Source: a phage
Length of the DNA: 44,937 bases
Assembly: GCA_025700225.1 (NCBI GenBank)
Contig: GCA_025700225.1_4339.1
Direction: 5' to 3' (one strand)
Made by a program: the position numbers and the translations under genes. This document shows, one piece after another, positions 1,826-16,237 of this stretch; positions within the stretch are counted from its first letter, which is position 1, and each line of letters opens with the position of its first letter. The notes under the pieces were generated by a model. The model made no database searches. It was not told the DNA's origin and worked only from the letters and a program-made list of their open reading frames with translations.

Positions 1826-1826
1826 C

Positions 1827-2030
1827 TTATTTCTCCTGTTTACCTAATCGTTTCGTTGAACATGTTGCGCGCACCTCGGTATCAATCGGCTTATCACCCT
1901 GAAACAGAAAGTGCACGTTCTCTGCGTTGCGTGCCGCAGCCTGGCACGCCTCCAGTGAGTAAAACGTTTCTGTTGCCGCTAGTTGTAACTGGCCTGCGGT
2001 CAGTGTCCAGATGAAAAGGAGCGTTGTCAT
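1827..2030 (-). CDS. hypothetical protein with hydrophobic N-terminus
   Basis: 67-aa ORF; N-terminal hydrophobic stretch TTLLFIWTLTAGQLQLAA; abuts neighbouring genes. Confidence 0.45.
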   Translation of the reverse strand: MTTLLFIWTLTAGQLQLAATETFYSLEACQAAARNAENVHFLFQGDKPIDTEVRATCSTKRLGKQEK

Positions 2031-2509: not shown

Positions 2510-2702
2510 CGATTAACTCAAACTTACCGTTCGCGTGCTGTATAGCTTCTTGTCCGCAATAATCACATACAACGAGTTTATCGAAGCCGTCGAACTCGTC
2601 ACCAACAACGCAAGATAGTACGAATTTGTGGTCGGTACATACCTCTTGCCGCGGCAGGAAGATTGCGCTAATCGACCCTGCTATTGCTTTAATTAAGTTC
2701 AC
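2481..2702 (-). CDS. hypothetical protein
   Basis: 73 aa; GTG start preceded by GGAGG; CDYCG motif. Confidence 0.5.
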   Translation of the reverse strand: MNLIKAIAGSISAIFLPRQEVCTDHKFVLSCVVGDEFDGFDKLVVCDYCGQEAIQHANGKFELIDEEGEGDGE

Positions 2703-2814
2703 CGTCTACCTCCAGTTCGCCGTAAACATGTTCATTGTCGCCGTCGCATACACCGCAAACTTGCAACTCAGCATAAAGCTGTTCCAGTCGTTCTACCGTC
2801 AGATACTTATACAT
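2689..2814 (-). CDS. small hypothetical protein (41 aa, CxxC)
   Basis: ATG at 2814 preceded by GAGGAGAGA; below the ORF-track size cut-off; overlaps the next gene start. Confidence 0.35.
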   Translation of the reverse strand: MYKYLTVERLEQLYAELQVCGVCDGDNEHVYGELEVDGELN

Positions 2815-2840
2815 CTTCTGTCTCTCCTCTCGTTCGTGTA

Positions 2841-2875
2841 AATGAATAGTAGCCTATTCTATCTTAGTGTGCAAG
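2841..2875 (-). promoter_or_regulatory. promoter-operator motif copy (GAATAG-N4-CTATTC palindrome; TTGCAC...TAGAAT read leftward)
   Basis: member of the repeated motif family; sits 25-60 nt upstream of the leftward gene start at 2814. Confidence 0.5.
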
Positions 2876-2881
2876 TAAATT

Positions 2882-3076
2882 TTATTGGTGTTTTAAATAT
2901 AATCGTTCACTGCGAATCCAGTAGTACCTCGGACGTCTGGCCCACTGACGCCATCGCATAACACGGTACTTGCTGCCGTTTAACGCAACAATAAGACCGA
3001 ATCGCTTTTCTCCGTTTCTACCGGTCCAGGTTACGATGTCATTCAGTTTCATTGTTGCATCTCCTGCAATAGTCAC
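2882..3076 (-). CDS. hypothetical protein
   Basis: 64-aa ORF, basic C-terminus. Confidence 0.45.
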   Translation of the reverse strand: MTIAGDATMKLNDIVTWTGRNGEKRFGLIVALNGSKYRVMRWRQWARRPRYYWIRSERLYLKHQ

Positions 3077-3186
3077 TTCGATTGTTGCGTTTGGTGAAAG
3101 TGTCGCTTTTTGACGACACTAATCTAAAGTTGTACGCTGCTACACAGCAGCGTAAGTCACTCAGTAAAATCCCAAACTATTGAACA

Positions 3187-3396
3187 TCACATTCCCGGCG
3201 GCTCAGGTAAAGGCATCCAGTGTGTTGGTTTCCACGAAGCTCCAGGAATTAGCCACCCATCATCAGCGTCAGGATGTCCCGGAATATAAGTAGCCCACTT
3301 CATACGCCAATCACCTTTATGCCCGAACTCCGTTGCTACGAGAACGCCCGTCATTTTAGGAGGCATCCGCTCACTACACTTAATCCACTTGCTCAT
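3187..3396 (-). CDS. DUF551-like phage protein
   Basis: 69 aa; W-rich pattern MSKWIKCSERMPP...THWMPLPEPP resembles DUF551 proteins. Confidence 0.65.
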   Translation of the reverse strand: MSKWIKCSERMPPKMTGVLVATEFGHKGDWRMKWATYIPGHPDADDGWLIPGASWKPTHWMPLPEPPGM

Positions 3397-3554
3397 AAAT
3401 CGCCTCTCTTCTCAAACGCACCAGCCATTACATTCGCACCAGCTTTCCACGCCCGCCACGCAAGACGAGTCTTAACGTTCAGGTACTCTTTCTTCGAACC
3501 CTTGTTAACGGGCAGCCCCTCGACGACGGCCCACCGTTCAAATGCTTCTCTCAT
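3393..3554 (-). CDS. small hypothetical protein (53 aa)
   Basis: ATG at 3554 preceded by GAGGA; stop overlaps next start (ATGA); fills gap between track ORFs. Confidence 0.4.
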   Translation of the reverse strand: MREAFERWAVVEGLPVNKGSKKEYLNVKTRLAWRAWKAGANVMAGAFEKRGDL

Positions 3555-3557
3555 AAC

Positions 3558-3749
3558 TTAGTAATCCTCGTCTTCTTCTTCCTGATACTCGATGAACGCA
3601 CCCAGGCGCTGCAACTCGGCACACGCCATAAAATACCCCAACGCATCGGCGCGTTCCGAATCTGTCTTAAACTCGGATAGTGGATAACGCTCATAGAACT
3701 TGTTAATCAAAAACGCCTGGTCGAATTTAGTAGCGTCGTAATTACTCAT
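3558..3749 (-). CDS. hypothetical protein (acidic C-terminus)
   Basis: 63-aa ORF in coupled array. Confidence 0.5.
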   Translation of the reverse strand: MSNYDATKFDQAFLINKFYERYPLSEFKTDSERADALGYFMACAELQRLGAFIEYQEEEDEDY

Positions 3750-3952
3750 AACTCAACTCCGTTATGTTTCATAAAACTGTTTAACTTATACCTCCGGTAC
3801 CGCGCTACCTCCTTAGCGTGGGCCAAATGCCACGACTTCCACGGAGTGTATTTCGCCTTTTCCCAGCATTCAACACCAAACTCTGCGGCGCGCAGACCAC
3901 CAACCAGACGCGCCAAACGAAATTTGTTATACGGACTCATACCAACCCCCAT
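3746..3952 (-). CDS. hypothetical protein
   Basis: 68-aa ORF, overlapping stop/start with neighbour. Confidence 0.5.
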   Translation of the reverse strand: MGVGMSPYNKFRLARLVGGLRAAEFGVECWEKAKYTPWKSWHLAHAKEVARYRRYKLNSFMKHNGVEL

Positions 3953-4010
3953 AACGCGTGCACCACATAAACGGCGCTGACAATTAAAATAAACGGGTAA
4001 TTATTCATAC

Positions 4011-4268
4011 TTAGTCCTTAACTCTTACCCAAAACTCACCACAATACCAACACCACATAAGATTCGGCGACTCACGCACCCACCCGTAGTCCTTACGCGC
4101 ACGAATTGGGATAATACCTTTAACGCAATAATAGCCTGTGCGCAGAAACTCAGGGTCGCGGGTCGCAGTACGCCACATATTATAAAACTGCGCCAACCCC
4201 GCACCGCGACGCATAACCCGCACCTTATGAAGGGTGTCCGTAACCTTTTCCAGTTCAGTGTTATTCAT
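4011..4268 (-). CDS. hypothetical protein (Cys/Trp-rich)
   Basis: ATG at 4268 preceded by GGGAGG; track ORF extends to a TTG at 4277. Confidence 0.5.
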   Translation of the reverse strand: MNNTELEKVTDTLHKVRVMRRGAGLAQFYNMWRTATRDPEFLRTGYYCVKGIIPIRARKDYGWVRESPNLMWCWYCGEFWVRVKD

Positions 4269-4471
4269 TAACGGCAACCTCCCTCAGAGTCGTCGGCGCT
4301 AGCATCATGATTCGATGCCGTTCGTAGTGCACGTAAAACTTTCAGCAAATCTTCACATGCCTCAGAAGAAACAGTTGAACCGCCTAATAAAGTAACCTTG
4401 TAATGGTTAACTATGAAATGCACTTCTTCCAGTTCATGATGTTTAAGTTCTTCAAATAATTCTTCCATCAC
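4268..4471 (-). CDS. hypothetical protein
   Basis: 67-aa ORF. Confidence 0.5.
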   Translation of the reverse strand: MMEELFEELKHHELEEVHFIVNHYKVTLLGGSTVSSEACEDLLKVLRALRTASNHDASADDSEGGCR

Positions 4472-4662
4472 TTCGCCCCTTTGAATTTAAAATTGTTGCC
4501 GATGAGTTCCATATCCTGCGCGTATAAAACGGTGAGATACGACCCTGCTAAAGATTTTGCGAAATAGACGCTACACTCTTTGTGGTGTACGAATGAAATA
4601 ACCGCTAGCTCTCCTGTCTCAGTAATCCTTACCAACTGACCCTTCTTAAACATAACCCTCAC
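4468..4662 (-). CDS. hypothetical protein, first gene of leftward early arm
   Basis: 64-aa ORF; RBS GAGGAG upstream; adjacent to divergent control region. Confidence 0.55.
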   Translation of the reverse strand: MRVMFKKGQLVRITETGELAVISFVHHKECSVYFAKSLAGSYLTVLYAQDMELIGNNFKFKGAK

Positions 4663-4675
4663 TCCTCTGTCTCGT

Positions 4676-4721
4676 TTCGATAAGTGAATAGTAGCCTATT
4701 ATATTGGTATGTGCAAGCGAA
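4676..4721. promoter_or_regulatory. promoter-operator motif copy in divergent control region
   Basis: tcgataaGTGAATAGtagcCTATTATATTggtatgtgcaag; near-identical to the copy at 37505-37556 in the opposite orientation. Confidence 0.55.
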
Positions 4722-4892
4722 GATTCGTTGCCGTTGTGATTCTTTGGAGGAGGGTTGTGCCTTTATTCTTTTTACTTGGTAACTAGAGGGCAGGCCTTAA
4801 GGCCTGCCCAATAATAGTTACATTTTTACGGTTGCGAATCTACGGCACTTTAAGAAAATCAGTTACTTAGTAACTTTGAGGGATTTTTACAA

Positions 4893-5035
4893 TAGACTAT
4901 GGCCCTTCCGAACGCGTCAGCGTAACTACACTCAGGACTAACGTCCCGCTCCGTTACATGCCGCGCCGCGGTCGCTTGCTCATACTTCACAAGCTCATGT
5001 GGAGCTTACCATATTTTTAAGTAAAAGTCAATACC
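4893..5035. repeat. conserved ~140-bp non-coding element, copy A (candidate structured RNA / cis-regulatory leader)
   Basis: about 85% identical to 37311-37455 in the same orientation; no ORF; hairpins with compensatory changes. Confidence 0.6.
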
Positions 5036-5078
5036 TGTAGCATCTTTTGTATCTTAGTAACTTTGTTCATGGATTGGG

Positions 5079-5107
5079 TTGCTTTTACATTCCCGCTATC
5101 ATATACT
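5079..5107 (+). promoter_or_regulatory. sigma70-like promoter for the rightward replication operon
   Basis: TTGCTT-N17-TATACT about 30 nt upstream of the GGAGG RBS of the gene at 5139. Confidence 0.5.
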
Positions 5108-5138
5108 TGGCTTCATCAAACAGAGAGGAGGTATATAA

Positions 5139-5321
5139 ATGCAACATTACATGACGCAGAATGAAGTAGCTGAACGTATCGGGGTGACTCGCCAGACAAT
5201 TAATAACTGGTTACGCAGTGGTAAATTCCCTGACTGCTGTATTAAGGTAATGGGCCGCCGATTACCAGGTACATTTGACCGTAATAAAGTTGAAGAATGG
5301 ATTAAGGAGAACGTGAAATGA
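5139..5321 (+). CDS. small HTH DNA-binding protein (AlpA/Xis/MerR-like)
   Basis: 60 aa; MTQNEVAERIGVTRQTINNWLRSGKFP is a classic helix-turn-helix; strong RBS GGAGG. Confidence 0.7.
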   Translation: MQHYMTQNEVAERIGVTRQTINNWLRSGKFPDCCIKVMGRRLPGTFDRNKVEEWIKENVK

Positions 5322-5551
5322 TTGGTCGTATGGGTTGTAGCTATAGAGAAGACGGCAGTGTTAAGCATTATTTTAAAATAGCATCTGCTATCTCAGCAGA
5401 AGGTTGTTACGTTGAACTTTTCCCTTACACATTCCGTGGGCCTACTAAGATAGTTAAATACTCTATCGAGGATATTTTGGATTGCCGGTTTTTCCAGACA
5501 GAAGTTGAATGGGTGAACGCCGCCAATATTAAAAAGAAACCCCAACGCTAG
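5318..5551 (+). CDS. hypothetical protein
   Basis: 77-aa ORF, ATGA-coupled to the upstream gene. Confidence 0.5.
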   Translation: MIGRMGCSYREDGSVKHYFKIASAISAEGCYVELFPYTFRGPTKIVKYSIEDILDCRFFQTEVEWVNAANIKKKPQR

Positions 5552-5601
5552 AACGTCGGGGCTAAGGTACAAATCATCAAAGTAAGCACAAGGATTATAC
5601 A

Positions 5602-5730
5602 ATGACAAAGTTAATTGTTCCACAACTACGCCGTCAGAGACACGGCGCTGATTTCTTCGCACCTGTGAAGATGAACCGCGCTATGCGCCGTATGCAGGAA
5701 GCTTTAGAACGTGCGGAGAAAAAGAAATGA
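5602..5730 (+). CDS. small basic hypothetical protein (42 aa)
   Basis: ATG preceded by AAGGA; stop overlaps primase/helicase start (ATGA). Confidence 0.35.
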   Translation: MTKLIVPQLRRQRHGADFFAPVKMNRAMRRMQEALERAEKKK

Positions 5731-7934
5731 ATATCATCTTCGCTACCCTTAGAAACACGTTCGATAAAAACCCGGTCGCGCGCGAGATGCCACTGGAACA
5801 GTTTGTCGAGTTTGTGTGTGATACGTCGAAACGTATGTCCGTCGACCCGTCGTGGACAAAAGAAGAATACGACGCAGCTAAGATTAAGCAGAAGGCTATC
5901 GCTCCTGTTGGTGGTCGCCGTAAAAACGCGATACTCGAAGACAGCGTGGTTAAGTTCGACTTCGACCATCTTACACGCGCGCAGTACCGCGACCTTACCC
6001 GCAAATTCAAGAACGCGCCGTTCTTCAATATTCTGCATACAACGGCGTCGCACCAGCACGCGTGCAAGAACGGTGACTACGCGTTCCGTGTTCTTGTTCC
6101 TGCACGAACCCCGTTTAACACTAACGATGCCTGGATGGTGCAACGCGCTATTTGCGCAGAGTTAGAGATTGACGAATCTCTTCGCGACCACTGCACAGAG
6201 GACGGCAACCGTCTTATCTACCTGCCGCATAAAGAGTCGAAGATAACTGTTACAGAAGGTCGTGTTATCCGCGCCGAACGCTACATAAAAAAAGCTGAGG
6301 GGATGGGGCTTAAGAAACGTGAAGCTAAGACACTTGCCGCCGATGAGCACGGTCTTAACGCGGATATAGCGCATTTTTGCGAAGCAGAGTTGGGCCTTGA
6401 AGCGCTGTCGTCAGGTCGTGGATACGAAGTACCATGCCCCAACGAACACCTGCATACGGGGAAAGGCTCCACCAGTATCATGTTAGATGGTAAAGAGGTG
6501 CGTTTTGTATGTCAGCATACTAACAACGGCTCGTGCACTGAACTTAACCGCCGCCAGCATCTGGCCTTGCGTATGTGCGGTTTACCAGATGAACTGAACG
6601 TTGATAAGCAGCCAATCAGCATCAACAGTATCCGCGCCGCGCTCCCAGATTTACCGGAAGAAGAGATTGAAGAACTGCACCGTACAGAAAACGAAGAATC
6701 GGTAACTTGCACGCTGGAAGACCTTGAAGAAGAGGATGAGTTACCGGAACCGGTAAAGGCCGATTTCGTCGTCGAGGGCTACATGCCGTCAGATTGCATA
6801 TGGGATATCGTCGGTGAGTCCGGCACATATAAGTCTTTCTACACCCTGGGCATGATGTACCTTAGCGCCGCCGGGTACCGGTTCGCAGGCGCTGATACGC
6901 AGCGCTGCCATCACTTCTACATTGACGGGGAAGGCGGCGCGGCTACACGCACACGTATTGACGCACTGGCGGCTAAGTACGGAGAGGAAGGCAAGAACTA
7001 CATCCACGTTATCGATATGGGTGAAGTCGGAAAACTGAAAAGCCTGATTAAGCTGATGCGCGAAACTGCTGGCGACGAGCCAATTGGCATGGTTGCGTTC
7101 GATACCCTCAACCAGACGCTGGCCCTGACTATTGATAAGTTCGACGAGAATAGCTCATCAACGGCAATCGGTATGGGTAAAGTTATCGCCATACTGAAAG
7201 AAGTCCGCGATGCGACTAAAGCTGCCGTTGGAGTTGTACACCACACGCCAAAAGGCGGAAAGAAAGCCCGTGGTAGCGGTGCGCTGTACGCGGGCGTGGA
7301 CGTTGAACTGACAATTGAGCGCGCAACAGACCGCCAGATTAACGTCTCGCACACTAAATTTAAGCACGGGCCGCAACAGAAAACGATTGGTATGGTGCTG
7401 GAGCCGGTGCAGTTTCGTGAAGCCCCTCCACCGAAAGAGTACCGCGCGGTAGAGTTCATCGGTAGCACCGAGGAATACGGCGCAATCGTAAACCTTGACC
7501 TGCCGGAACCCCATAAGGCGCTCGTGTTAATGCCGTGGGGCTTTGAGCCGTTCAAGACAGATGAGGAAAAAGAGCGGGAAGAAGGGCTGTCTAAAGAAGG
7601 GAAAGAAAAAGTAAAGGAAGAAGTTAAACGCGGCAGGGATGAAGTAAGGAAGGAGTCAATACTCTCGGCACTCGAAGACCTGCAACAGTCCGACGACACT
7701 GGCCGCGGGTTTACACAACGGCAGATAGTAGCCAATTCTGGCGACCACTCTATAACTAACCACCATCTTGAGAAGATGCTGAAAGACGGTGAGTTGATGT
7801 TGGGGTGTGACGTTAACGGTGAGGTGATACCGGGAACATACCGGATACCAGAAAAGATGGGGGACAGGCTGAGGCCGAAGACAGTGTACGAACCGAATGA
7901 AATGCTGGTAGTGACCGAGGAGGATTTGGAATGA
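5727..7934 (+). CDS. DNA primase/helicase (N-terminal primase-like region plus P-loop NTPase/helicase domain)
   Basis: 735 aa; Walker A-like GESGTYKS and a second nucleotide-binding region; Glu/Lys-rich C-terminal extension; sits in the replication module. Confidence 0.8.
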   Translation: MNIIFATLRNTFDKNPVAREMPLEQFVEFVCDTSKRMSVDPSWTKEEYDAAKIKQKAIAPVGGRRKNAILEDSVVKFDFDHLTRAQYRDLTRKFKNAPFFNILHTTASHQHACKNGDYAFRVLVPARTPFNTNDAWMVQRAICAELEIDESLRDHCTEDGNRLIYLPHKESKITVTEGRVIRAERYIKKAEGMGLKKREAKTLAADEHGLNADIAHFCEAELGLEALSSGRGYEVPCPNEHLHTGKGSTSIMLDGKEVRFVCQHTNNGSCTELNRRQHLALRMCGLPDELNVDKQPISINSIRAALPDLPEEEIEELHRTENEESVTCTLEDLEEEDELPEPVKADFVVEGYMPSDCIWDIVGESGTYKSFYTLGMMYLSAAGYRFAGADTQRCHHFYIDGEGGAATRTRIDALAAKYGEEGKNYIHVIDMGEVGKLKSLIKLMRETAGDEPIGMVAFDTLNQTLALTIDKFDENSSSTAIGMGKVIAILKEVRDATKAAVGVVHHTPKGGKKARGSGALYAGVDVELTIERATDRQINVSHTKFKHGPQQKTIGMVLEPVQFREAPPPKEYRAVEFIGSTEEYGAIVNLDLPEPHKALVLMPWGFEPFKTDEEKEREEGLSKEGKEKVKEEVKRGRDEVRKESILSALEDLQQSDDTGRGFTQRQIVANSGDHSITNHHLEKMLKDGELMLGCDVNGEVIPGTYRIPEKMGDRLRPKTVYEPNEMLVVTEEDLE

Positions 7935-8128
7935 GCGGTAAATTTAAAGAAGTTAGCGACGAACTGAAAGGTAATAAATACATGAACCACAGAGGTGAGA
8001 TAGTAGAAGTCCTGAATGTTACTACTTATGGCCGTGGTTACCATGTTATATACAGTTACACAGAGGCGTACAGCGTATACTGCGGTCTTGGTAAGTTTAG
8101 GAAAAGATATCCGATAAAAGTAGAGTAA
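7931..8128 (+). CDS. hypothetical protein
   Basis: 65-aa ORF, ATGA-coupled to primase/helicase. Confidence 0.5.
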   Translation: MSGKFKEVSDELKGNKYMNHRGEIVEVLNVTTYGRGYHVIYSYTEAYSVYCGLGKFRKRYPIKVE

Positions 8129-8152
8129 AAAGAAAGGGGCGTTAAGCCCCTT
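8121..8152 (-). terminator. hairpin terminator for the leftward XRE gene
   Basis: stem aaggggc/gcccctt; on the minus strand followed by TCTTTTTACT; XRE stop codon lies in the loop. Confidence 0.5.
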
Positions 8153-8366
8153 GAGTCTGGTCTCCGAAAGCCAACCACTCTGGTTTAACTTCGAGAACTT
8201 CCGCGAGTTTAAACAGAGTGGTTCGACGGACATCCTGAGTTACGCCGAGGGCCAGTTGATTAATTGCCCCCTGGGAAACGCCGACCAGAGTAGCTAAACG
8301 GCGCTGAGACAGGCCAAGCTCTTTACGGCGTTGCTCCATACGAGCGCCAATTGGTGACTGTTGCAT
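8142..8366 (-). CDS. XRE-family HTH transcriptional regulator (Cro/CI-like)
   Basis: 74 aa; LSQRRLATLVGVSQGAINQLA matches the XRE HTH pattern; AAGGAG RBS; lone opposite-strand gene inside the rightward operon. Confidence 0.8.
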   Translation of the reverse strand: MQQSPIGARMEQRRKELGLSQRRLATLVGVSQGAINQLALGVTQDVRRTTLFKLAEVLEVKPEWLAFGDQTQGA

Positions 8367-8387
8367 AATGATTACTCCTTAGCTGAT

Positions 8388-8415
8388 TGATATGTGAATA
8401 GTAGCATATTAATTT
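8388..8415 (-). promoter_or_regulatory. promoter-operator motif copy upstream of XRE gene
   Basis: gtGAATAGtagcATATTA 20-50 nt upstream of the XRE RBS. Confidence 0.4.
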
Positions 8416-8429
8416 TTTGATAAAAAGCG

Positions 8430-8458
8430 TTGACAGGTGAATAGTTGGCTATTATAGT
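8430..8458 (+). promoter_or_regulatory. consensus sigma70 promoter with embedded palindromic operator
   Basis: TTGACA-N17-TATAGT; spacer contains GAATAG-ttgg-CTATTA; divergent from the XRE gene. Confidence 0.7.
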
Positions 8459-8491
8459 TAGCTCATACCAAACGAGAGGAGAGAAAGAAAA

Positions 8492-8668
8492 ATGGCTAAG
8501 AGAAAAGATTACGACGCCAACTGGAAAGTATGGTTTCCTGATTTCATACTTGAGGGTCGTGGTAATGTTAAAGGTATGGTTGTGCAAGCATTTAGCTATA
8601 TACCAGAAAACATGCAGAAAGATATTTTGAAAGAACTTAAAACTATCTCAGAAGAGGAGAACAAATAA
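8492..8668 (+). CDS. small hypothetical protein (58 aa)
   Basis: ATG at 8492 preceded by AGGAGAGA, downstream of promoter 8430-8458; stop overlaps next ATG. Confidence 0.45.
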   Translation: MAKRKDYDANWKVWFPDFILEGRGNVKGMVVQAFSYIPENMQKDILKELKTISEEENK

Positions 8669-9198
8669 TGTTAGAGAAATTCTTAGTATTACTGGAACGT
8701 TTCGTAGTTGCACACGAACTGATTGCTGCTAACAGCGTTCGCCGTACGGAACTGCCGAAGGCCATTACTGCGCCGTATGGTAAAGGCGCCGCGCCGCTAG
8801 AAGTAGAGACGGTAGTGTATACCAAAGAGGCGGTAGCCGAGTGCGCTGAAGAAGCAACAAAAGAAATCCCGGTCGAAGGTGAAGACGTCGTTGATACTAA
8901 ACCGGCAGAGGAAGAGAAGCCAAAACGCAAGCCGCGTAAAGCTAAAGTAGAGGAACCTGCGCCAGAGCCGGAAGAAGAGAAGGAAGAAGTCGATTATCAG
9001 TCTCTGCGTGACCAGATTCAGGCTATCGACGATGCGATTAACGAAGGCCCGAGCGATGCCGCGTGTGATGATTCTGATGAACTGCTGGAAGAGTTCACCG
9101 GTAAGAAGATGAAGATTGCCGCGATTAAAGACGAAGACCTGGCTGAATACCTGGAACGTCTGACGGCGATTAAGAACAAGTATTTCGAAGAAGAATAA
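8668..9198 (+). CDS. highly acidic hypothetical protein
   Basis: 176 aa, strong excess of Asp/Glu (EEEKPKRKPRKAKVEEPAPEPEEEKEEVD...). Confidence 0.6.
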   Translation: MLEKFLVLLERFVVAHELIAANSVRRTELPKAITAPYGKGAAPLEVETVVYTKEAVAECAEEATKEIPVEGEDVVDTKPAEEEKPKRKPRKAKVEEPAPEPEEEKEEVDYQSLRDQIQAIDDAINEGPSDAACDDSDELLEEFTGKKMKIAAIKDEDLAEYLERLTAIKNKYFEEE

Positions 9199-9211
9199 CT
9201 ACTTAACTTAT

Positions 9212-9235
9212 GGTGCCCTCAGTAGCGAGGGCACC
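9212..9235 (+). other. 9-bp GC stem-loop (attenuator-like, no T-run)
   Basis: ggtgccctc-agtagc-gagggcacc directly upstream of the conserved GAGGGTCGGAAA initiation region. Confidence 0.4.
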
Positions 9236-9253
9236 AAACTGAGGGTCGGAAAC

Positions 9254-9490
9254 ATGATTATTAAAGATATCAACAACGATGAAGCCAGAGTTAGCCTTGA
9301 GGTTCGCAACACGATACAGGGAAAGCAGAAAAGAGTAACCCTAGATTTCGACCCTGCGGATGAGATGAACGGGCTGTCGTTCATGGAATATACGCCTGAT
9401 ATGGCGCGCGAACTTGCTAAAGCACTTATTTCCGCCGCAGATGAAGCGGAGGCTATGCTGGACGAACTTGACTTTTATAGTTTTGAATGA
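9254..9490 (+). CDS. acidic hypothetical protein
   Basis: 78 aa; conserved initiation region GAGGGTCGGAAACATGATT. Confidence 0.55.
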   Translation: MIIKDINNDEARVSLEVRNTIQGKQKRVTLDFDPADEMNGLSFMEYTPDMARELAKALISAADEAEAMLDELDFYSFE

Positions 9491-9501
9491 GGGTCGGAAA
9501 T

Positions 9502-9774
9502 ATGATTTACCAACTATATCGCGCTGTAGACAGGCGGGATAACACAGAGGCGCTATGGCTGTTACGTGCCCCGTCCGGCGCGCACCAGATGGACGAGATG
9601 GCGTACTTAGGCAAAGTACCACGGCCTAAAGATATAGGCCGTCACGTGTCGCAGATTAAGCGCACGACTTTCGCCAAACCTGACTTTTATGTCTTCGAGT
9701 CGATGTATGGGTGGGCTATGCATTGCCAGCACCAGACCAGACATTTAATTGACCAGTGGGAGAACAGGGTATGA
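9502..9774 (+). CDS. hypothetical protein
   Basis: ATG at 9502 preceded by GAGGGTCGGAAAT; track ORF extends to 9487. Confidence 0.5.
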   Translation: MIYQLYRAVDRRDNTEALWLLRAPSGAHQMDEMAYLGKVPRPKDIGRHVSQIKRTTFAKPDFYVFESMYGWAMHCQHQTRHLIDQWENRV

Positions 9775-10115
9775 CTGATAAATGGTGGCTTAATTTGCGC
9801 AGCGGTGACAAAGTTTACACCGTCGGCGACCGCAGAAAGAACAGTGGTGCAGCTACTGTGCTGCAAAACGGTAGAAAGTACATCCACATTGCGCATGAAG
9901 CTCGCGTGCTACGTGTGAATAAATCGTCTGGCAGACTTGAGGATTACCCGAAAACATTAATATACAAAAGTGAAAAGCATCACATGTCTGCTGTTGACGC
10001 AAGACGTAAGTTCGCGGGGATGCTGCAACAGTTAAGCGACTTACATCGCGATGATTCTTTCATACCAACAGAAGAACAGTTACAGGCATTAAACTTGTAT
10101 TTGGAGAGTTTATGA
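9771..10115 (+). CDS. hypothetical protein
   Basis: ATG at 9771 overlapping upstream stop (ATGA); 114 aa. Confidence 0.5.
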   Translation: MTDKWWLNLRSGDKVYTVGDRRKNSGAATVLQNGRKYIHIAHEARVLRVNKSSGRLEDYPKTLIYKSEKHHMSAVDARRKFAGMLQQLSDLHRDDSFIPTEEQLQALNLYLESL

Positions 10116-11356
10116 TGATTCTAAAAGAACGCGGCGGCAATAACGACGTACACGCCCTGCTGTCGCCGTCAGGTGCTAAAAAGTGGCTGGCGTGCAGCGC
10201 TTCGTTAGCCTGTGAAAAAGATATCCCGAACACGTCCGGTAAAGCTGCCGTATTAGGCACGGCTATGCACACAATATCTGAGATTCACTTGAATCAGTAC
10301 ATCAAGGGCACTGCGCTACCGTTAGAGCGTGAAGTCGGTGCTTACGTGCTGGATGAGGGTAAAGGCCAGATTAAGGCACTAATCAGCCCGATGAAAGGCG
10401 CGGTACTGATTACGGCGGATATGATTGAGCAGGTTCGCAAGTACACAGACTACTGCAAAGCTATTATCGATGTAGCGACTTACGCCAAGCTGGAAATGCG
10501 CGTCAATCTTACTGAGGTATTGCATCCTGGCTACGAAGGTGTCGAGACGTTCGGGACTGCTGACCTTGTTGCCGTACAGGAACTGGCTAACACCGACGAG
10601 TACATGCTCATTATCGGAGACCTGAAAACTGGACGGCATCGTGTTGAAGCGAAAGAAAACAAGCAGCTTATGCTTTACGCTCTCGGTGTTTATCGCCGAC
10701 TCAAGAGACGTTATAGCATCACCGTGGTTCGTCTGGTCATCTTCCAGCCGTATGCTGGCGGTGCGTCGGAGTGGGACATATCGGTTGAAGGTCTGGAACT
10801 GTTCGCTAAGTTCGCGCAGAAACGTGCGCTGTTAGCTCTTGATGCGTATTTCCGTGGCAAGAAGAACCTGAAAGCGTCAGACTTCAAACCGTCGGTGGAC
10901 GGTTGCCAGTGGTGCCGGTTCTCTGAACAGTGCGCTGCGCGTACAAAGACGGTTAATTCTGTACTGGCAGAAGAACTGGATGGCGACTTCGCGCTGGAAC
11001 TGACGCCAGAGCAACTTGTAGCTGAATATGAGAAGTTGCCGTTGTTGCGCCAGCATATCGACAAGGTAGAAAAAGCGATGTCTGCCGCGTTGCATTACGG
11101 TAAGAAAGTGCCGGGATACAAGTTGGTGGAAGGCCGTCCGGGTAATCGTGCGTGGAAAGACGCCGACAAGGTGGCTGAGAAATACGGCGACAAGCTGACT
11201 AAAGAAGTGCTCATGACGCCGACCGAAGCGGTTAAGGTTATCCCGGAAGAAGAACTGAAAGACTTCATCACACGTAAGCCAGGTTCACCATGTGTAGCAA
11301 CGGTAGACGACAAACGGCCTGAGTGGAATCAGGTAACAGAGGAGGATTTAGAATGA
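10112..11356 (+). CDS. PD-(D/E)XK exonuclease, Cas4/RecB-like with Fe-S Cys cluster
   Basis: 414 aa; N-terminal LACSASLAC and C-terminal CQWCRFSEQC (CX2CX5C) as in Cas4/AddB nucleases; replication-module context. Confidence 0.75.
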   Translation: MMILKERGGNNDVHALLSPSGAKKWLACSASLACEKDIPNTSGKAAVLGTAMHTISEIHLNQYIKGTALPLEREVGAYVLDEGKGQIKALISPMKGAVLITADMIEQVRKYTDYCKAIIDVATYAKLEMRVNLTEVLHPGYEGVETFGTADLVAVQELANTDEYMLIIGDLKTGRHRVEAKENKQLMLYALGVYRRLKRRYSITVVRLVIFQPYAGGASEWDISVEGLELFAKFAQKRALLALDAYFRGKKNLKASDFKPSVDGCQWCRFSEQCAARTKTVNSVLAEELDGDFALELTPEQLVAEYEKLPLLRQHIDKVEKAMSAALHYGKKVPGYKLVEGRPGNRAWKDADKVAEKYGDKLTKEVLMTPTEAVKVIPEEELKDFITRKPGSPCVATVDDKRPEWNQVTEEDLE

Positions 11357-11604
11357 TTCGTAAAATGTTCAGAGTACTTGGCGGGTTTGTAGCGTGTATT
11401 GTTTTCTGGGTTCTTATGCTTCCTCTGACGATACCAACATTTGTCTTAATGTGCCTTACGGTGTGTATAACGCAAACACGTGACATTGAAGCCATCCTGA
11501 ATGACAAATCGTGGAAGACACAGGCGCTTCGTTCCATAAACAACATGAAATGGCCAAACAAGTATATTGAGATAGTTGAGAAAATAACTGGCTGGAAGTG
11601 TTGA
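11353..11604 (+). CDS. small membrane protein (two predicted TM helices)
   Basis: ATG at 11353 coupled to upstream stop; hydrophobic VLGGFVACIVFWVLMLPLTIPTFVLMCLTVCI. Confidence 0.5.
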   Translation: MIRKMFRVLGGFVACIVFWVLMLPLTIPTFVLMCLTVCITQTRDIEAILNDKSWKTQALRSINNMKWPNKYIEIVEKITGWKC

Positions 11605-11629
11605 CACCTGAATAGTTAGCTATTATAGT
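11601..11629 (+). promoter_or_regulatory. consensus sigma70 promoter with embedded palindromic operator
   Basis: TTGACA-N17-TATAGT with GAATAG-ttag-CTATTA in the spacer; 55 nt upstream of the SSB-like gene. Confidence 0.7.
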
Positions 11630-11686
11630 TCTAATCACTGGCCGGGCAGCTTCCCGGAGTAAACTGAAAAACTGAGGAATCGAGAG

Positions 11687-12316
11687 ATGGGTATTAAGCT
11701 GAATCTGCGTAAAGTAAACACTGCTTGGGTTAACGTATTCGAACGCGAAAAAGACCGTGAAAACGACGATGGCTCTATCACTAAAGGTCAGTACAGCGCA
11801 ACTATCATCATGCCGTCTGACCATGCGCAAATCGACGAAATGTACGACACCGTTTACGCTGTAGTTGAAGAGGCGTTGGGTGCAGCCGCTGCCGAGAAAT
11901 GGATGAAGTCCAACTACGGCGAAGGTAAGCACATGGATAAATGCGCGATTAAAGACATTGCCGAGCGCGACAATCCGTTTGAAGACTTCCCGGAAGGCTT
12001 CTACTTCAAAGCGAAGGCACAGAAACAGCCGCTGATTGTAACCTCTAAAAAAGGTGAGACTCAGGTAGAGCAGGACTTCAACGTAGACGGCGAGCAGATT
12101 GAAGGCGAACAGGTTTACAGCGGCTGCGTCGCTAACGTTAGCGTTGAAATCTGGTTCAGCCAGAAATACAAAGTCCTCGGCGTTAACCTGCTGGCGATTA
12201 AATATGTTGGCGAAGGTAAAGCGTTTGGTGGTTCTAAAGTTGCAGCCAGCGTCAATGACCTGGAAGACGACGAAGAAGATGAAGCACCGCGCCGCGAACG
12301 TCGTCGCCGTGGTTAA
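11687..12316 (+). CDS. phage ssDNA-binding protein (DUF2815-like) with acidic tail
   Basis: 209 aa; acidic C-terminal tail DLEDDEEDEAP typical of SSBs; precedes DNA polymerase. Confidence 0.7.
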   Translation: MGIKLNLRKVNTAWVNVFEREKDRENDDGSITKGQYSATIIMPSDHAQIDEMYDTVYAVVEEALGAAAAEKWMKSNYGEGKHMDKCAIKDIAERDNPFEDFPEGFYFKAKAQKQPLIVTSKKGETQVEQDFNVDGEQIEGEQVYSGCVANVSVEIWFSQKYKVLGVNLLAIKYVGEGKAFGGSKVAASVNDLEDDEEDEAPRRERRRRG

Positions 12317-12335
12317 TATCTGAATATGTTTAATT

Positions 12336-12358
12336 AAGGCCCTTTATTGGGCCTTTTT
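12336..12358 (+). terminator. intrinsic terminator after SSB-like gene
   Basis: stem aaggccc/gggcctt followed by TTTTT. Confidence 0.7.
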
Positions 12359-12374
12359 ACTAAGGGTCGAAATA

Positions 12375-12518
12375 ATGATTTTCTGTAAGCACGTATACCG
12401 CTATATAAAACCGCTTCCGTGGTACGCGGATGAGTACCGGCATGTGTGGATTTGCCGTGATTGTATGAAAATAAGATTCAGCGAAACGAAGGCACTGGAT
12501 TTAAGGAAAAAGAAATGA
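12375..12518 (+). CDS. small basic hypothetical protein (47 aa)
   Basis: ATG preceded by AAGGGTCGAAATA motif; stop overlaps DNA polymerase ATG (ATGA). Confidence 0.35.
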   Translation: MIFCKHVYRYIKPLPWYADEYRHVWICRDCMKIRFSETKALDLRKKK

Positions 12519-14698
12519 ACCGCTACTTATACTTAGACTTTGAAACCTTCTCCGAAGCCGATTTGAAGAAAGTCGGTTCTTATGCTTACGCCGAACATCC
12601 GACTACCGAAGTGCTTATCTGCACCTATGCCTTTGATGATGAACCGGTTCAGGTATGGGACTGCACTGACGGCAGCGATATGCCGGGAGATTTGCACCGC
12701 GCGTTACGCCGTCTGGTGAAGCCAAACAGCCGTATCAAGATGGTCTGGCACAACGGCTCAATGTTCGACCGCCTCATCATGAAGAACTGCTGGGGCTTTG
12801 ATATCCCGGTCAGCAATACCATCGATACGATGATTTGGGCGTTTCGTCACGCGCTGCCAGGTTCACTTGACGCATTGTGCGAAGTGCTGGGTGTATCCGC
12901 CGACAATGCGAAAGATAAACGCGGCAAGGCGCTGATTCAGCGTTTCTCAAAACCTACGCCGAAGAACTACAAAATCCGCCGCTACACCGCCGAAACACAC
13001 CCGGACGAGTGGGCGCTGTTCATCAAGTACGCCGTGAGCGACATCACCGCGATGCGTGAAGTCTTTCATAAGCTGCCGCGTTGGGGTAACTCCGAGTTCG
13101 AGGACCGCGTACTGGAACTGGACCAGTTAATCAATGACCGCGGGTTTAAGGTTGACGTTGCACTGGCGGAAGCCGCGATTGAAGCCGTAGAGAAACACAA
13201 GGCGCAGTTGCAGGAAGAAGCTCAGCGTAAATACGGCGGCTCACTTACCGGTAAAGACTTCCTGCCGATTCTGCGTGAACTGGCTCCTGCGCATCGCATA
13301 CACAACGCGCAGAAGTCGACGCTTAACGACCTGCTGGCGGACGAGGATTTACCGGACGACGCGCGCACGATTATCGAAATGCGCCTCGGGGCTGCGTCTA
13401 CCGCGTCAACGAAATATAACCCGCTGCTGTTAGGTCGCTCGTCGGACGACCGCCGCCGCGGTTGCATCCAGTACGGCGGAGCTAAGCGTACATTACGATT
13501 CGCCGGTAAAGGCTTCCAGCCGCAGAACCTGGCGCGCGGGTACTATCATGACGATGAGCTGGATAAAGGGATTTCTGCGTTGCTGAAAGGACGTGCTCAT
13601 CGTCGGTTTGATGTAGCCAAGCTAACGGCGTCAACAGTGCGTAGCTGCATCATCCCGGAAGCCGGGCATAAGTTTGTTGTTGCCGATTACTCTAACGTGG
13701 AAGGCCGTGGCCTGGCGTGGTTGGCGGGCGAAGAAACCGCGCTTGATACGTTCCGCGCCGGGCTGGATATTTACTGCGTAACGGCTGGCAAGATGTTTGG
13801 CCTGGAACCAGATTACATTAAGAAAGAACGTAAAGACTTACGCCAGATTGGTAAAGCCTGCGAATTGGGCCTTGGGTACGCTGGGGGTGTCGGGGCTTTC
13901 GTTCAGTTCGCCAAGAACCTCGGCCTTGACCTCGTAGACATGGCTAAGACAATGGCGGGTACATTCCCCGACCATATCTGGGCCGCTACGGCACGGGGTT
14001 ACGAGTGGGCTCGTATTCAGGAAGCTAAGCGCCCCCCGCGTCCGGGTGAAAAGGACGACAGACCATCATATATCCTTGATAAGAAAGTCTGGCGTACATG
14101 CGACGCGATTAAGCGTATGTGGCGTGAGTCTCACCCGGAAACAGTAGCTTTCTGGCGAGATATTGAAGACGCGGCTATGGCAGCTATCCGCAATCCAGGT
14201 AAAGAGTTCACCGCAGGGCCGCGCGGTGTTAAGTTTTCGCGTAACGTAGAAACAGACAACAACGGCAACAAAGTCGCCGGTTGGTGGCTGCGCATGACGT
14301 TGCCGTCCGGTCGCGTTATGTCTTACCCGGGTGTAGGATTGAGCGTGTCGAAAGAGACAGACGAAGACGGGAAGGTGTCTACTAACGTGCGCATCAAGTA
14401 CCAGGGTGAAAACCAGTTAACCCGTCAGTGGGGCTTCCAGTACACCTACTCCGGTAAACTCGTGGAAAACTGTACGCAGGCGCTGTGCCGTGATTTGCTG
14501 GCCAATGCGCTGCTGAACGTAGAGGCAAACGGCTACCCGATTGTACTTCACGTACACGATGAGATTATCTGCGAGACGCCAGATTTACCGGAATACAATG
14601 TCACAGAGCTTGAGCGGTTGATGTGTTCGCTGCCTGAGTGGGCTGAGGGGTTCCCTCTTGTGGCAGAAGGTGCGGAGATGAAGCGTTATGCTAAGTAA
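12515..14698 (+). CDS. family A DNA polymerase with N-terminal 3'-5' exonuclease domain
   Basis: about 727 aa; DnaQ-like Exo I motif YLDFETFS; polymerase motifs C-terminal (VHDEIICE); start taken at ATG 12515 with AAGGA RBS (track ORF begins at 12461). Confidence 0.88.
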   Translation: MNRYLYLDFETFSEADLKKVGSYAYAEHPTTEVLICTYAFDDEPVQVWDCTDGSDMPGDLHRALRRLVKPNSRIKMVWHNGSMFDRLIMKNCWGFDIPVSNTIDTMIWAFRHALPGSLDALCEVLGVSADNAKDKRGKALIQRFSKPTPKNYKIRRYTAETHPDEWALFIKYAVSDITAMREVFHKLPRWGNSEFEDRVLELDQLINDRGFKVDVALAEAAIEAVEKHKAQLQEEAQRKYGGSLTGKDFLPILRELAPAHRIHNAQKSTLNDLLADEDLPDDARTIIEMRLGAASTASTKYNPLLLGRSSDDRRRGCIQYGGAKRTLRFAGKGFQPQNLARGYYHDDELDKGISALLKGRAHRRFDVAKLTASTVRSCIIPEAGHKFVVADYSNVEGRGLAWLAGEETALDTFRAGLDIYCVTAGKMFGLEPDYIKKERKDLRQIGKACELGLGYAGGVGAFVQFAKNLGLDLVDMAKTMAGTFPDHIWAATARGYEWARIQEAKRPPRPGEKDDRPSYILDKKVWRTCDAIKRMWRESHPETVAFWRDIEDAAMAAIRNPGKEFTAGPRGVKFSRNVETDNNGNKVAGWWLRMTLPSGRVMSYPGVGLSVSKETDEDGKVSTNVRIKYQGENQLTRQWGFQYTYSGKLVENCTQALCRDLLANALLNVEANGYPIVLHVHDEIICETPDLPEYNVTELERLMCSLPEWAEGFPLVAEGAEMKRYAK

Positions 14699-14819
14699 AC
14701 TGATTATCGCGGTACTGGCGGGATTCGCCGCCGGTGTCTATTGTCACGAGGGGCAATACGGCATGATTGTCGCCGTATTGGGTATGTTAGTAGCAATTTA
14801 TCTGTGGGTGCTGGAATGA
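14688..14819 (+). CDS. tiny membrane protein (43 aa)
   Basis: ATG overlapping end of polymerase gene; hydrophobic; first of three ATGA-chained mini-ORFs. Confidence 0.25.
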   Translation: MLSKLIIAVLAGFAAGVYCHEGQYGMIVAVLGMLVAIYLWVLE

Positions 14820-14905
14820 AAATTTACTGGTTATACGAAGAAGACTGCCGAATCTGTCCGCGCTGCGGGATTGAGCATACGAAACGTGAGGGGTGTGTAT
14901 TATGA
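14816..14905 (+). CDS. tiny Cys-rich peptide (29 aa)
   Basis: CRICPRCG motif; ATGA-chained. Confidence 0.2.
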   Translation: MKIYWLYEEDCRICPRCGIEHTKREGCVL

Positions 14906-15054
14906 CAATGTTTGTATTTTGGACGATAGTAACCATGCTCGCACTGTTACTCGGTGCAGGAATAGCCGCGGTGTTCTGTTATGGCCTGTTCTTTAAGTTT
15001 GTCGGTGTTGCCGTTCTAGGAGGGGCTTTCCTTACTTGGGTTCTGCGATCATGA
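14902..15054 (+). CDS. tiny membrane protein (50 aa)
   Basis: hydrophobic throughout; ATGA-chained to the VRR-NUC gene. Confidence 0.25.
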   Translation: MTMFVFWTIVTMLALLLGAGIAAVFCYGLFFKFVGVAVLGGAFLTWVLRS

Positions 15055-15335
15055 CCCCGGAAGGCAAAATACAGAAATACGCGAAAGAGCGATTCGAGGC
15101 CCTCGGAGGCCTCGTTAGAAAATTGTCGTACGAAAATAGAGTAGGCGCCCCCGACCTGTTAGTAATCCTCCCCGGCGGCATCATCTGGTTCGTCGAGGTG
15201 AAGAAAGACGAAAATACGAAGCCAGACCCGCACCAGCTACGTGAGCACGAACGGCTGCGTAAACGCGGTGCAAATGTTTTTGTCGTTGGCTCGTTTAAAC
15301 AGGTTGACGACCTAATAGCAAACTATTATAGTTAG
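15051..15335 (+). CDS. VRR-NUC domain nuclease (PD-(D/E)XK)
   Basis: about 94 aa; GAPDLLVILPGG...FVEVKKDE carries the D...EVK signature; frequent partner of SNF2 helicases in phages. Confidence 0.75.
   Translation: MTPEGKIQKYAKERFEALGGLVRKLSYENRVGAPDLLVILPGGIIWFVEVKKDENTKPDPHQLREHERLRKRGANVFVVGSFKQVDDLIANYYS
15304..15332 (+). promoter_or_regulatory. consensus-like sigma70 promoter with perfect palindrome TAATAG-N4-CTATTA
   Basis: TTGACG-N17-TATAGT inside the 3' end of the VRR-NUC gene, 35 nt upstream of the next gene. Confidence 0.55.
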
Positions 15336-15365
15336 TCCTACACCAACAATATAAGGAATTGATAA

Positions 15366-15557
15366 ATGAAACACGAATATGACCGCAAGCCCGCACGTGA
15401 CATCGTACCTGGGGACATGATTTTCAACGTTAAGACGCGCCAGCCTGTTGCCGTTGATACCGTGTTCGTCGAGTCGAACGGTAAACTGGTTATCGAGGAC
15501 GTAACAGGTAACGTTACGGCGTTCGGGCGTAAAGAACTGGTGCTGGTGGCAAAATGA
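15366..15557 (+). CDS. hypothetical protein
   Basis: 63-aa ORF with RBS AAGGA. Confidence 0.5.
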   Translation: MKHEYDRKPARDIVPGDMIFNVKTRQPVAVDTVFVESNGKLVIEDVTGNVTAFGRKELVLVAK

Positions 15558-16237
15558 TTGTCTGGTCATTGTTTGACGGTTCGGGCCTTATGGCCCAACC
15601 GTGGGCAGAAGCGGGCCATACTTGCTATTGTTTCAACTACGACGGTGCCGACCACGGAGACTACGCACGATTGGGCGCAAAAGTTGAACATGAAAATATC
15701 CACTATATAAACGCGTGGATTGATAATAAATTCGACTTCGACGTTGCTCCTGATATTATTTTCGCGTTCCCTCCGTGCACAGATTTAGCCGTTAGCGGCG
15801 CGGCTCATTTCGAAACGAAGCGGAAGAAGAATCCGACGTTCCAGGTAGAGGCTGTGATTACATGCAAAGTGGCGGCGCGTCTGGCTAAAAAGTACAACGT
15901 ACCTTATATGATTGAGAACCCGGTTAGTGTTCTTTCGTCTCTATGGCGTAAGCCCGACTACGTGTTCAATCCGTACGAATACGGCGGGTATTTACCGGAA
16001 GACGACACGCATCCAATGTTCCCTGAATACATAAAACCTCGGGACGCGTACCCTAAGAAGACATGTATTTGGGCCGGTAACGGTTTTGTTATGCCCGTTA
16101 AATCATGTGTTGCCGTTGGTGATGGGTACGCAGACCAACACAATAAATTGGGCGGTAAATCAGTGCGGACAAAAACAATCCGCAGCCTTACTCCGCGGGG
16201 TTTCGCAAAAGCAGTTTACGAGGCAAATCATGTCTAA
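15554..16237 (+). CDS. minimal DNA (cytosine-5) methyltransferase-like protein
   Basis: 227 aa; motif I LFDGSG, motif IV-like FPPCTD (catalytic Pro-Cys), motif VI-like ENP, C-terminal RSLTPRGF; too short for a normal target-recognition domain. Confidence 0.65.
   Translation: MIVWSLFDGSGLMAQPWAEAGHTCYCFNYDGADHGDYARLGAKVEHENIHYINAWIDNKFDFDVAPDIIFAFPPCTDLAVSGAAHFETKRKKNPTFQVEAVITCKVAARLAKKYNVPYMIENPVSVLSSLWRKPDYVFNPYEYGGYLPEDDTHPMFPEYIKPRDAYPKKTCIWAGNGFVMPVKSCVAVGDGYADQHNKLGGKSVRTKTIRSLTPRGFAKAVYEANHV

Follow-up and report, generated by a model that had tools for sequence, protein, structure and literature searches.

Why do three genes with unrelated products share an almost identical stretch of sequence up to and into their start codons? 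The question arises in the replication module of a phage genome of 44,937 nucleotides (nt) (contig GCA_025700225.1_4339.1 of NCBI GenBank assembly GCA_025700225.1), the whole of which is called the window below, where such blocks lie at the starts 9254, 9502 and 12375, as the original prediction, made from the sequence alone, had claimed. The answer that we regard as probable is that the block belongs to a conserved linker, composed of a hairpin or stop codon, a Shine-Dalgarno sequence (SD) and an ATG, which serves as a portable ribosome site and recombination junction for accessory cassettes and not as a gene-specific translational operator. The linker is positional, portable and a breakpoint between related phages, whose similarity ends at the ATG or inside the block, and it is better conserved than the surrounding genes. 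The two positions that it occupies in relatives are called slot A and slot B, and the copies in the window are the following (aa, amino acids; ORF, open reading frame):

9240..9259, plus strand: block copy 1, TGAGGGTCGGAAACATGATT (TGAGGGTCGGAAAC followed by ATGATT), the slot-A linker, with its ATG at 9254; repeat family D7.
9488..9507, plus strand: block copy 2, TGAGGGTCGGAAATATGATT (TGAGGGTCGGAAAT followed by ATGATT), the initiation region of a 90-aa ORF, with its ATG at 9502; repeat family D7.
12361..12380, plus strand: block copy 3, TAAGGGTCGAAATAATGATT (TAAGGGTCGAAATA followed by ATGATT), the slot-B linker, with its ATG at 12375; repeat family D7.

The products of all three genes start with Met-Ile, and the similarity is real and extends past the SD core, both of which had been proposed beforehand. 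Each block carries an SD (GAGG or TAAGG 9 nt upstream of the ATG), and we take its TRAGGG to pair with 3'-AUUCCU-5' of the 16S rRNA in the register of the E. coli anti-SD, where R, as A or G alike, presumably pairs with U. In block 1 the SD core (9241-9246) is followed by a purine-rich 8-nt spacer and the ATG; block 2 includes the TGA (9488-9490) that ends the 78-aa ORF before it; and in most relatives the counterpart of block 3 is where translation of the DNA polymerase itself begins. The 19-mer block allowing up to three mismatches gave two matches in the window vs none in 100 shuffles. The raw count of the 10-mer core with up to one mismatch (five observed vs 4.5 expected) was not significant, and all three plus-strand exact matches of this core lie 12 nt upstream of a start codon. 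When the initiation regions (-16..+6, start codon masked) of the 67 predicted genes were compared in 2,211 pairs, the mean identity was 6.05/19 with a standard deviation (sd) of 2.1, and the three block pairs, scoring 17, 15 and 14 of 19, were top outliers more than 3.7 sd above the mean; one non-block pair, 7931/11353, likewise scored 15 of 19. The similarity is confined to the block, because the 78-, 90- and 47-aa products are unrelated (best BLASTP E = 0.34) and DNA identity among the three genes is at chance level, 11-20/60, immediately past codon 2, which rules out paralogy of the three genes.

The window belongs to a Kagunavirus-like siphophage (Guernseyvirinae), ∼85–90% identical to the E. 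coli phages CR01, M01, fEg-Eco19, and Bas72, with about 450 related Escherichia and Salmonella phage records. The block was followed through 33 related loci, comprising 11 GenBank regions (L001, L007-L014, L132, L133) and IMG/VR contigs filtered by similarity to the window; a 15-mer scan for slot A returned mostly chance matches in unrelated contigs, and about 21 loci remained after filtering by similarity. In all 33 loci the block stays in place and what varies is the gene that follows, with at least 12 different ORFs seen downstream across the two positions. The features that frame the slots in the window are:

8668..9198, plus strand: conserved 176-aa gene (phrog_3127), annotated in relatives as '13.88 kDa late protein'.
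9211..9236, plus strand: type-2 GC-rich stem-loop GGTGCCCTC-AGTAGC-GAGGGCACC, 9–10 base pairs (bp), -19.7 kcal/mol, upstream of block 1.
9254..9490, plus strand: 78-aa accessory ORF (MIIKD...), a rare cassette between block copies 1 and 2.
9502..9774, plus strand: 90-aa ORF (MIYQLYR..., phrog_4965), which immediately follows the hairpin and block of slot A in most relatives.
11687..12316, plus strand: gene of a Gp2.5-like single-stranded-DNA-binding (SSB) and annealing protein (Enc34_ssDNA-bd / DUF2815), the left anchor of slot B.
12336..12358, plus strand: intrinsic terminator AAGGCCC-TTTATT-GGGCCTT + TTT, -13.0 kcal/mol, upstream of block 3.
12375..12518, plus strand: 47-aa Cys-rich accessory ORF between the slot-B linker and the DNA polymerase gene, with an ATGA overlap with the polymerase start at 12515.
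12515..14698, plus strand: DNA polymerase A gene, moved off the slot-B linker by the 47-aa ORF.

Slot A runs from the stop of the 176-aa gene (GAAGAAGAATAA), its constant left anchor, through a few variable bases and a GC hairpin to (TTT)AACTGAGGGTCGGAAWT and the ATG. Behind it stand at least nine unrelated ORFs: the 90-aa gene (MIYQLYR, the commonest), a NinX-like gene, the 78-aa gene (MIIKD), MAILVKK, MSNVYK, MSLDIS, an HNH-type ORF, MIYWAIF (at an internal copy), and, in SP-101, the exonuclease directly. The association is not fixed from either side, as JD01 has a canonical AGGAGG instead of the block before its exonuclease, and the 90-aa gene is found with the block or, in phage 26, M01, and EC3-1, with a quite different upstream junction. 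Slot B consists of the SSB stop, a terminator, TTTTTACTAAGGGTCGAAAATA and the ATG, followed in most genomes directly by the DNA polymerase gene and in a few, including the window, by the small ORFs MIFCKHV/MFFCKHV or MAAELK; Jerseyviruses have a terminator of the same structure and different sequence here and keep TATAAGGGTCAAATAA-ATG. The linkers of the two slots are identical at 17 of 20 positions. The first three to five codons of the DNA polymerase gene vary among relatives (MSYLFL, MPNLLYL, MQDLLF, MNLLYL, MNRYLYL, MNTLLYL) and the remainder is conserved, a pattern that suggests repeated remodelling right at the junction of linker and ORF.

A stem-loop is present at copies 1 and 3 of the window and at every slot-A and slot-B copy of the relatives, and no hairpin lies upstream of block 2. 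That two of the three blocks follow a terminator or stem-loop, as first described, therefore stands, with the label of terminator confined to one of them: the element at 12336-12358 has the 7-bp stem followed by UUU (five consecutive U with the two of the 3' arm) of an intrinsic terminator, and that at 9211-9236 is called a stem-loop because AAACUG, and no U-tract, comes next. Most relatives carry at slot A the type-1 hairpin GCGGCC-TTCG-GGCCGC-TTT, after which there is only UUU.

Copies of the block also occur in tandem, setting apart successive cassettes within slot A. Three consecutive copies, each leading a different ORF, are present at locus L121, and Escherichia phage 26 likewise has three, of which one leads NinX, one follows the MIIKD gene, and one precedes the exonuclease. 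Two copies each occur in L104, L085, and LM08P2. At internal copies, the block takes in the stop codon (TGA, TAA, or TAG) of the ORF that it follows. The window itself reads block, 78-aa cassette, block, 90-aa gene. The 78-aa gene was detected by tblastn in only three of the ∼450 related records, and in Bas72 and K-02, which are without it, hairpin and block run straight into the 90-aa gene. Its 3' end is ...TGAGGGTCGGAAWTATGATTTAC in both the window and phage 26, with different genes thereafter, and EC3-1 and L003 have a shorter version of the gene without this tail. Crossing-over between the linkers of two genomes would leave just such an insertion between 20-nt direct repeats of the linker. 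In phage 26 (L007 3924-4429 compared with window 9254-9774) the 90-aa and 78-aa genes stand in the opposite order, and the alignments of the two small genes overlap only at ATGATTTAC; this is a permutation of cassettes and not a simple indel. In Salmonella phage JD01 (L012), a segment comprising the 3' end of the 176-aa gene, the hairpin, the ribosome site, and the 5' part of the exonuclease gene is duplicated in tandem at 4250-4860. One 60-nt junction is present twice there (gene starts 4291 and 4844), as if unequal recombination had taken place in the slot.

The ends of BLAST alignments between window 5.5–15.5 kb and 30 relatives, 256 in number, fall in about 12 sharp clusters, all at gene boundaries, three of which are at the block sites (9200, 9475-9510, and 12375-12381). 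Hairpin types 1 and 2 are each seen with the MIYQLYR, MAILxKK, and MIIKD genes (6/6 combinations), and since only the ∼20-nt block is common between hairpin and ORF, either crossovers inside the block or repeated precise insertions would be needed; the marker combinations argue for recombination within ∼20 nt, with recurrent independent insertion as the formal alternative. The spacer variants (TCGGAATT, TCGGAAAT, TCGTAATT, TAGGAATT, and others) are not linked to the downstream gene, and the block therefore belongs to the constant side of the junction.

Constraint on the linker was assessed in 13 unique genomes with one and the same downstream gene, the 90-aa gene, at slot A. These genomes do not differ in the hairpin stem, CTTTAAC, or GAGGGTC, the SD core TRAGGGT and the hairpin never vary, and the spacer positions vary about like synonymous third-codon positions, with a mean column entropy of 0.18 for hairpin plus block vs 0.35–0.42 for third positions. 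On this comparison, the hairpin and SD core appear constrained or homogenised and the exact spacer does not, and the near-identity of the window copies at 9240 and 9488 is best attributed to recent common descent of the linker and not to selection on each base. In the full phage database, the 40-nt type-1 unit is found in 266 phage records (222 at ≥95% identity) and the slot-B unit in 127, and the flanking 4 kb are 80–90% identical in 403/451 records; the block is thus conserved in relatives, its absence from which had been named beforehand as grounds for refutation.

The surrounding module is transcribed rightward and runs from a promoter (8430-8458) through the 176-aa gene, hairpin, block 1, 78-aa ORF, block 2, 90-aa ORF, a 114-aa ProQ-C-like ORF, the exonuclease gene, and an 83-aa ORF to a second promoter (11601-11629), followed by the Gp2.5-like SSB/annealase gene, terminator, block 3, 47-aa ORF, and DNA polymerase gene. 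It thus encodes both a PD-(D/E)XK exonuclease and a Gp2.5-like annealase. The features not listed so far are:

8430..8458, plus strand: sigma-70-like promoter TTGACA-17-TATAGT (11/12 match), heading the slot-A transcription unit; repeat family D1.
9771-10115: 114-aa ORF with a Pfam Phage_ProQ_C_like match (30.1 bits, cutoff 27), a possible RNA-associated protein.
11601..11629, plus strand: sigma-70-like promoter heading the SSB, slot B, and DNA polymerase unit; repeat family D1.

The ProQ-C-like ORF is itself accessory, being present in Bas72, K-02, and M01 and absent from phage 26, EC3-1, and SP-101. No promoter was predicted in or beside the blocks, the nearest being the two listed, 0.7–0.8 kb upstream.

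Taken together, these patterns fit a linker consisting of a stop codon or a GC hairpin/terminator, ACT, the SD TRAGGGT, a purine- or A-rich spacer of 8–9 nt, and an ATG, of which the block would be the 3' half and which, in the Kagunavirus and Jerseyvirus members of the Guernseyvirinae, would form the fixed left border of two hypervariable slots of the replication module. At the RNA level, it may act as a generic portable initiation region with optimal aligned spacing for the first ORF past an attenuating hairpin or terminator, and where a stop codon lies inside the block, coupling of termination and reinitiation is likely. Hairpin and SD stand too close together to accommodate a promoter, and none is predicted; expression of the downstream genes, those for DNA polymerase and exonuclease included, would therefore have to rely on read-through. 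As regards the DNA, the 20–40 bp of shared sequence may suffice for annealing-type recombination between related phages, probably carried out by the phage's own exonuclease/annealase pair, so that cassettes could be inserted, deleted, replaced, or reordered exactly at the ATG. Such an event may have placed the 78-aa cassette, with a copy of the block at its own 3' end, before the 90-aa gene.

Several points weigh against this explanation. We infer recombination inside the block from patterns in the sequences, and breakpoints at gene starts could likewise arise if illegitimate recombination were followed by selection that kept initiation regions intact; most of the other breakpoints in the module are at gene boundaries that lack this block. 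The sample is dominated by close relatives, so that counts of genomes are not counts of independent events. The T and C kept after GGG and the 17/20 likeness of slots A and B exceed a minimal SD, and the linker model leaves them unexplained. Finally, among the 67 genes, the SD zones of the three block genes come 2nd, 5th, and 7th in predicted base-pairing, and pairing as heavy as these predictions give is odd for a simple strong ribosome site.

A more far-reaching version, which we consider unlikely when taken as a whole, would make the hairpin-block units and the hairpin-less internal copies a dedicated cassette-capture system that works without an integrase. The linker would then be the preferred crossover site for the phage exonuclease and the Gp2.5-like annealase, single ORFs would be captured, stacked, and reordered, each being expressed at once, and the complementarity between the block and the 5' arm of the hairpin would form a bistable RNA switch tying expression of the captured gene to read-through and to translation of the upstream gene.

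Such a switch may also be considered by itself, as regulation in cis, a proposal that we find doubtful and that could add to the role of the linker. The G-rich block would pair upstream, with the hairpin's 5' arm and loop or the 3' end of the preceding ORF, or else with an internal site, and the SD would be exposed only upon translation of the upstream ORF or formation of the hairpin. Besides the high pairing ranks and the upstream stops inside the internal copies, the proposal draws on folding predictions for the type-1 junction, where an alternative helix CGGCCUUCGG/CUGAGGGUCG (-15.7 kcal/mol) is slightly more stable than the UUCG hairpin (-13.5 kcal/mol) and is the predicted fold in about half of the type-1 sequences. 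In the window, however, the alternative helix falls well short in stability of the slot-A hairpin (-11.9 vs -19.7 kcal/mol) and of the slot-B terminator (-8.8 vs -13.0 kcal/mol), the Jerseyvirus slot-B terminator gives no alternative helix by inspection, and co-transcriptional folding favours the hairpin; moreover, any G-rich SD beside a GC hairpin shows some alternative pairing, so the prediction may be trivial. The partners also differ from copy to copy. Block 2 is predicted to pair with the 3' end of the 78-aa ORF, and block 1, with a probability of >0.9 in the ensemble fold, with 9346-9355, where the following feature lies:

9346..9355, plus strand: TTTCGACCCT, the exact complement of the block core, within the 78-aa ORF.

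In phage 26 (TTCGACCG) and EC3-1 (TTCAACCC) this complement carries uncompensated mutations, and it is probably fortuitous, since neither homologue conserves it; a conserved long-range helix between the block and 9346-9355 is ruled out, as each copy is predicted to have a different partner.

Two other RNA signals were tried at the slot-A junction and rejected. The type-1 sequence GCCGCTTTAACWG resembles the boxA of rrn operons, which we take to be GCTCTTTAACAA, as an antitermination signal, but half of it lies within the hairpin stem and it is absent from the type-2 junction of the window (CACCAAACTG) and from slot B. TTAACTT (9203-9209), on the 5' side of the hairpin, resembles the T7 epsilon enhancer over only 6–7 nt, and type-1 junctions lack it.

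The suggestion first made for the blocks, a shared translational operator of the RegA type marking a co-regulated set of genes, is not supported, and its general form, in which a phage or host RNA-binding protein recognises the RNA of hairpin and block and represses or activates translation of the following gene, is quite improbable in our judgement. It would account for conservation past the SD core across two genera, for ≥95% identity of the 40-nt unit in the 222 records against 80–90% in the flanks, and for the likeness of the two slots, and a possible regulator, the ProQ-C-like protein, is encoded in the same operon. The hairpin and block of slot B also head the DNA polymerase gene directly after the SSB gene in most relatives, a layout reminiscent of the operator of T4 gene 43, which encodes DNA polymerase and, like gene 32 for the T4 SSB, is autogenously controlled. 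Yet a Pfam scan of the 37 early-region ORFs (window 357-17964; late ORFs were not scanned) detected no RegA/Translat_reg, KH, S1, CsrA, or Hfq domain, the ProQ-C-like match being the only one related to RNA, and the three phages without the ProQ-C-like gene (phage 26, EC3-1, and SP-101) retain the block. Moreover, the block follows a position and not a gene, the ORFs that alternate behind it at the two positions being mostly dispensable ORFans and no coherent regulon; it is used with two different hairpins, JD01 exchanges it for AGGAGG before the exonuclease, and its spacer varies like synonymous sites.

The second function proposed at the outset, an RNA processing site, at which a host RNase would cut the block or its junction with the hairpin and release stable monocistronic or 5'-hairpin-protected mRNAs, fared worse and is very unlikely. 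The place of the block, just past a stable stem-loop and with an A/U-rich single strand after it, might be compatible with RNase E-type cleavage, but the variable part of the block is exactly this A/U-rich stretch, block 2 and other internal copies have no hairpin, and an Rfam scan of 8000-13000 by E-value gave no family and one chance snoRNA match only; cleavage by RNase III is ruled out, because stems of 6–10 bp are too short for this enzyme. Chance resemblance of ordinary ribosome-binding sites, with which the unexceptional raw count of the 10-mer core would agree, has a negligible probability and is refuted by the shuffles, the pair outliers, and the conservation of the block at the same positions in hundreds of genomes.

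Beyond the blocks, a second family of conserved junctions, GTrACmGAGGAGGATTTrGAATGA, is present in the window at 7911-7942 and 11333-11364. It closes the helicase-primase and exonuclease genes, which are unrelated and both end in ...VTEEDLE* with an ATGA stop/start overlap, and in relatives it precedes at least six small ORFs (MSGKFKEV, MNIYDFID, MIRKMFRV, MIQVNEMP, MIRKIVYW, and MMVYILTR). With this second family (GAGGAGGATTTrGAATGA), it seems to be a general design principle of the module that variable slots carry conserved initiation-region linkers.

The two promoters of the module belong to a wider set of promoter-like repeats, TTGACA-N-GTGAATAGTnGCTATTATAGTT, in which an inverted repeat AATAG..CTATT overlaps the -10 region:

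4672-4706, 8389-8411, 8425-8459, 11596-11630, 15299-15333, and 2837-2859: copies of the promoter-like repeat.
27869-27902 and 37514-37547: copies of the same repeat in the opposite orientation.

The repeat matches the motif 'tgAATAGTa-ccTATTat-T' of phage fBC-Eco01 (PMC9825357), and it is probably a promoter for the host RNA polymerase combined with an operator for a helix-turn-helix regulator, for example that at 8142-8366 on the minus strand. A non-coding direct repeat of ∼137 nt (4893-5031 and 37311-37448) has two copies, 80–86% identical and 32.4 kb apart, each of which adjoins a promoter-like repeat.

If the linker does serve as a portable ribosome site and recombination junction, it bears on a long-standing choice between accounts of phage mosaicism, in which homologous exchange at short conserved linkers is set against random illegitimate recombination filtered by selection. 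Clear examples of linkers are few, comprising the promoter-early stem-loops (PeSLs) of T4-type phages, some lambdoid boundaries, and one mycobacteriophage case, and we found no description of this motif or of these slots in Guernseyvirinae in the literature searched. A 20–40-nt linker stands before a dozen interchangeable ORFs in phages of which hundreds have been sequenced and which are easily crossed and used therapeutically, and linker-mediated exchange is therefore directly testable in them. The linker would also mark safe, pre-wired insertion points for payload genes in Kagunavirus and Jerseyvirus phages and warn annotators that small ORFs behind it are accessory cassettes; should it be just a well-conserved ribosome site, the finding would be ordinary.

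Among known systems, the translational operators of T4 offer one comparison. In the RegA and the gene 43 and gene 32 operators, as here, conservation surrounds the SD and AUG of several early genes, and the slot-B hairpin, like the gene 43 operator, adjoins the SD of a DNA polymerase gene on its 5' side; unlike the RegA operators, the block has no RegA homologue beside it among the early ORFs scanned, follows position and not gene, and has a variable spacer. Both slots also resemble terminator-attenuated operons, where a leaky terminator stands between the gene for an abundant protein and those for enzymes, in their order of promoter, gene for an abundant or stoichiometric protein, hairpin, and enzyme genes. 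The single small accessory ORFs inserted between core genes recall morons, which in their classical form, as described in the introduction of PMC3029335, have their own promoter and terminator; the block cassettes differ in having neither and in borrowing a shared initiation region. For lambdoid phages, short conserved boundary (linker) sequences have been proposed, in opposition to the illegitimate-recombination model (summarised in PMC3029335, with its references 21 and 22). The block is similar in being a short conserved sequence at a gene boundary, with non-homologous genes on one side, that would provide a homologous substrate for reassorting modules, and in that all combinations of flanking markers are seen; it departs from them in doubling as an initiation region, in following a hairpin or terminator, and in recurring in tandem between single-gene cassettes.

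The T4-type PeSLs are the closest described systems, with the lambdoid boundary sequences also close. PeSLs are repeated cassettes of stop, promoter, stem-loop, SD, and start in hyperplastic regions, where they mediate modular shuffling, and the end-points of indels and replacements between related phages fall within the motif, which serves as an exchange point for otherwise unrelated sequences (Arbiol et al., 2010, PMC2839356; Comeau et al., 2014, PMC4122927). Like them, the block is a repeated conserved intergenic motif amid variable small ORFs, carries at its 3' end the SD and start codon of the downstream gene, has indels and replacements between related genomes ending within it, and is accompanied by a stable stem-loop at copies 1 and 3 and at all slot-A and slot-B copies, although not at internal copies such as block 2. 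Unlike PeSLs, its unit has no sigma-70 promoter and is shorter (∼20–40 nt), with only stop, SD, spacer, and ATG at internal copies, and it occurs in a handful of copies per genome in a 45-kb siphovirus. Because a promoter was looked for and was absent, the unit is not counted as a member of the PeSLs, and the block is best read as a promoterless analogue of the T4 PeSLs or of the lambdoid boundary sequences.

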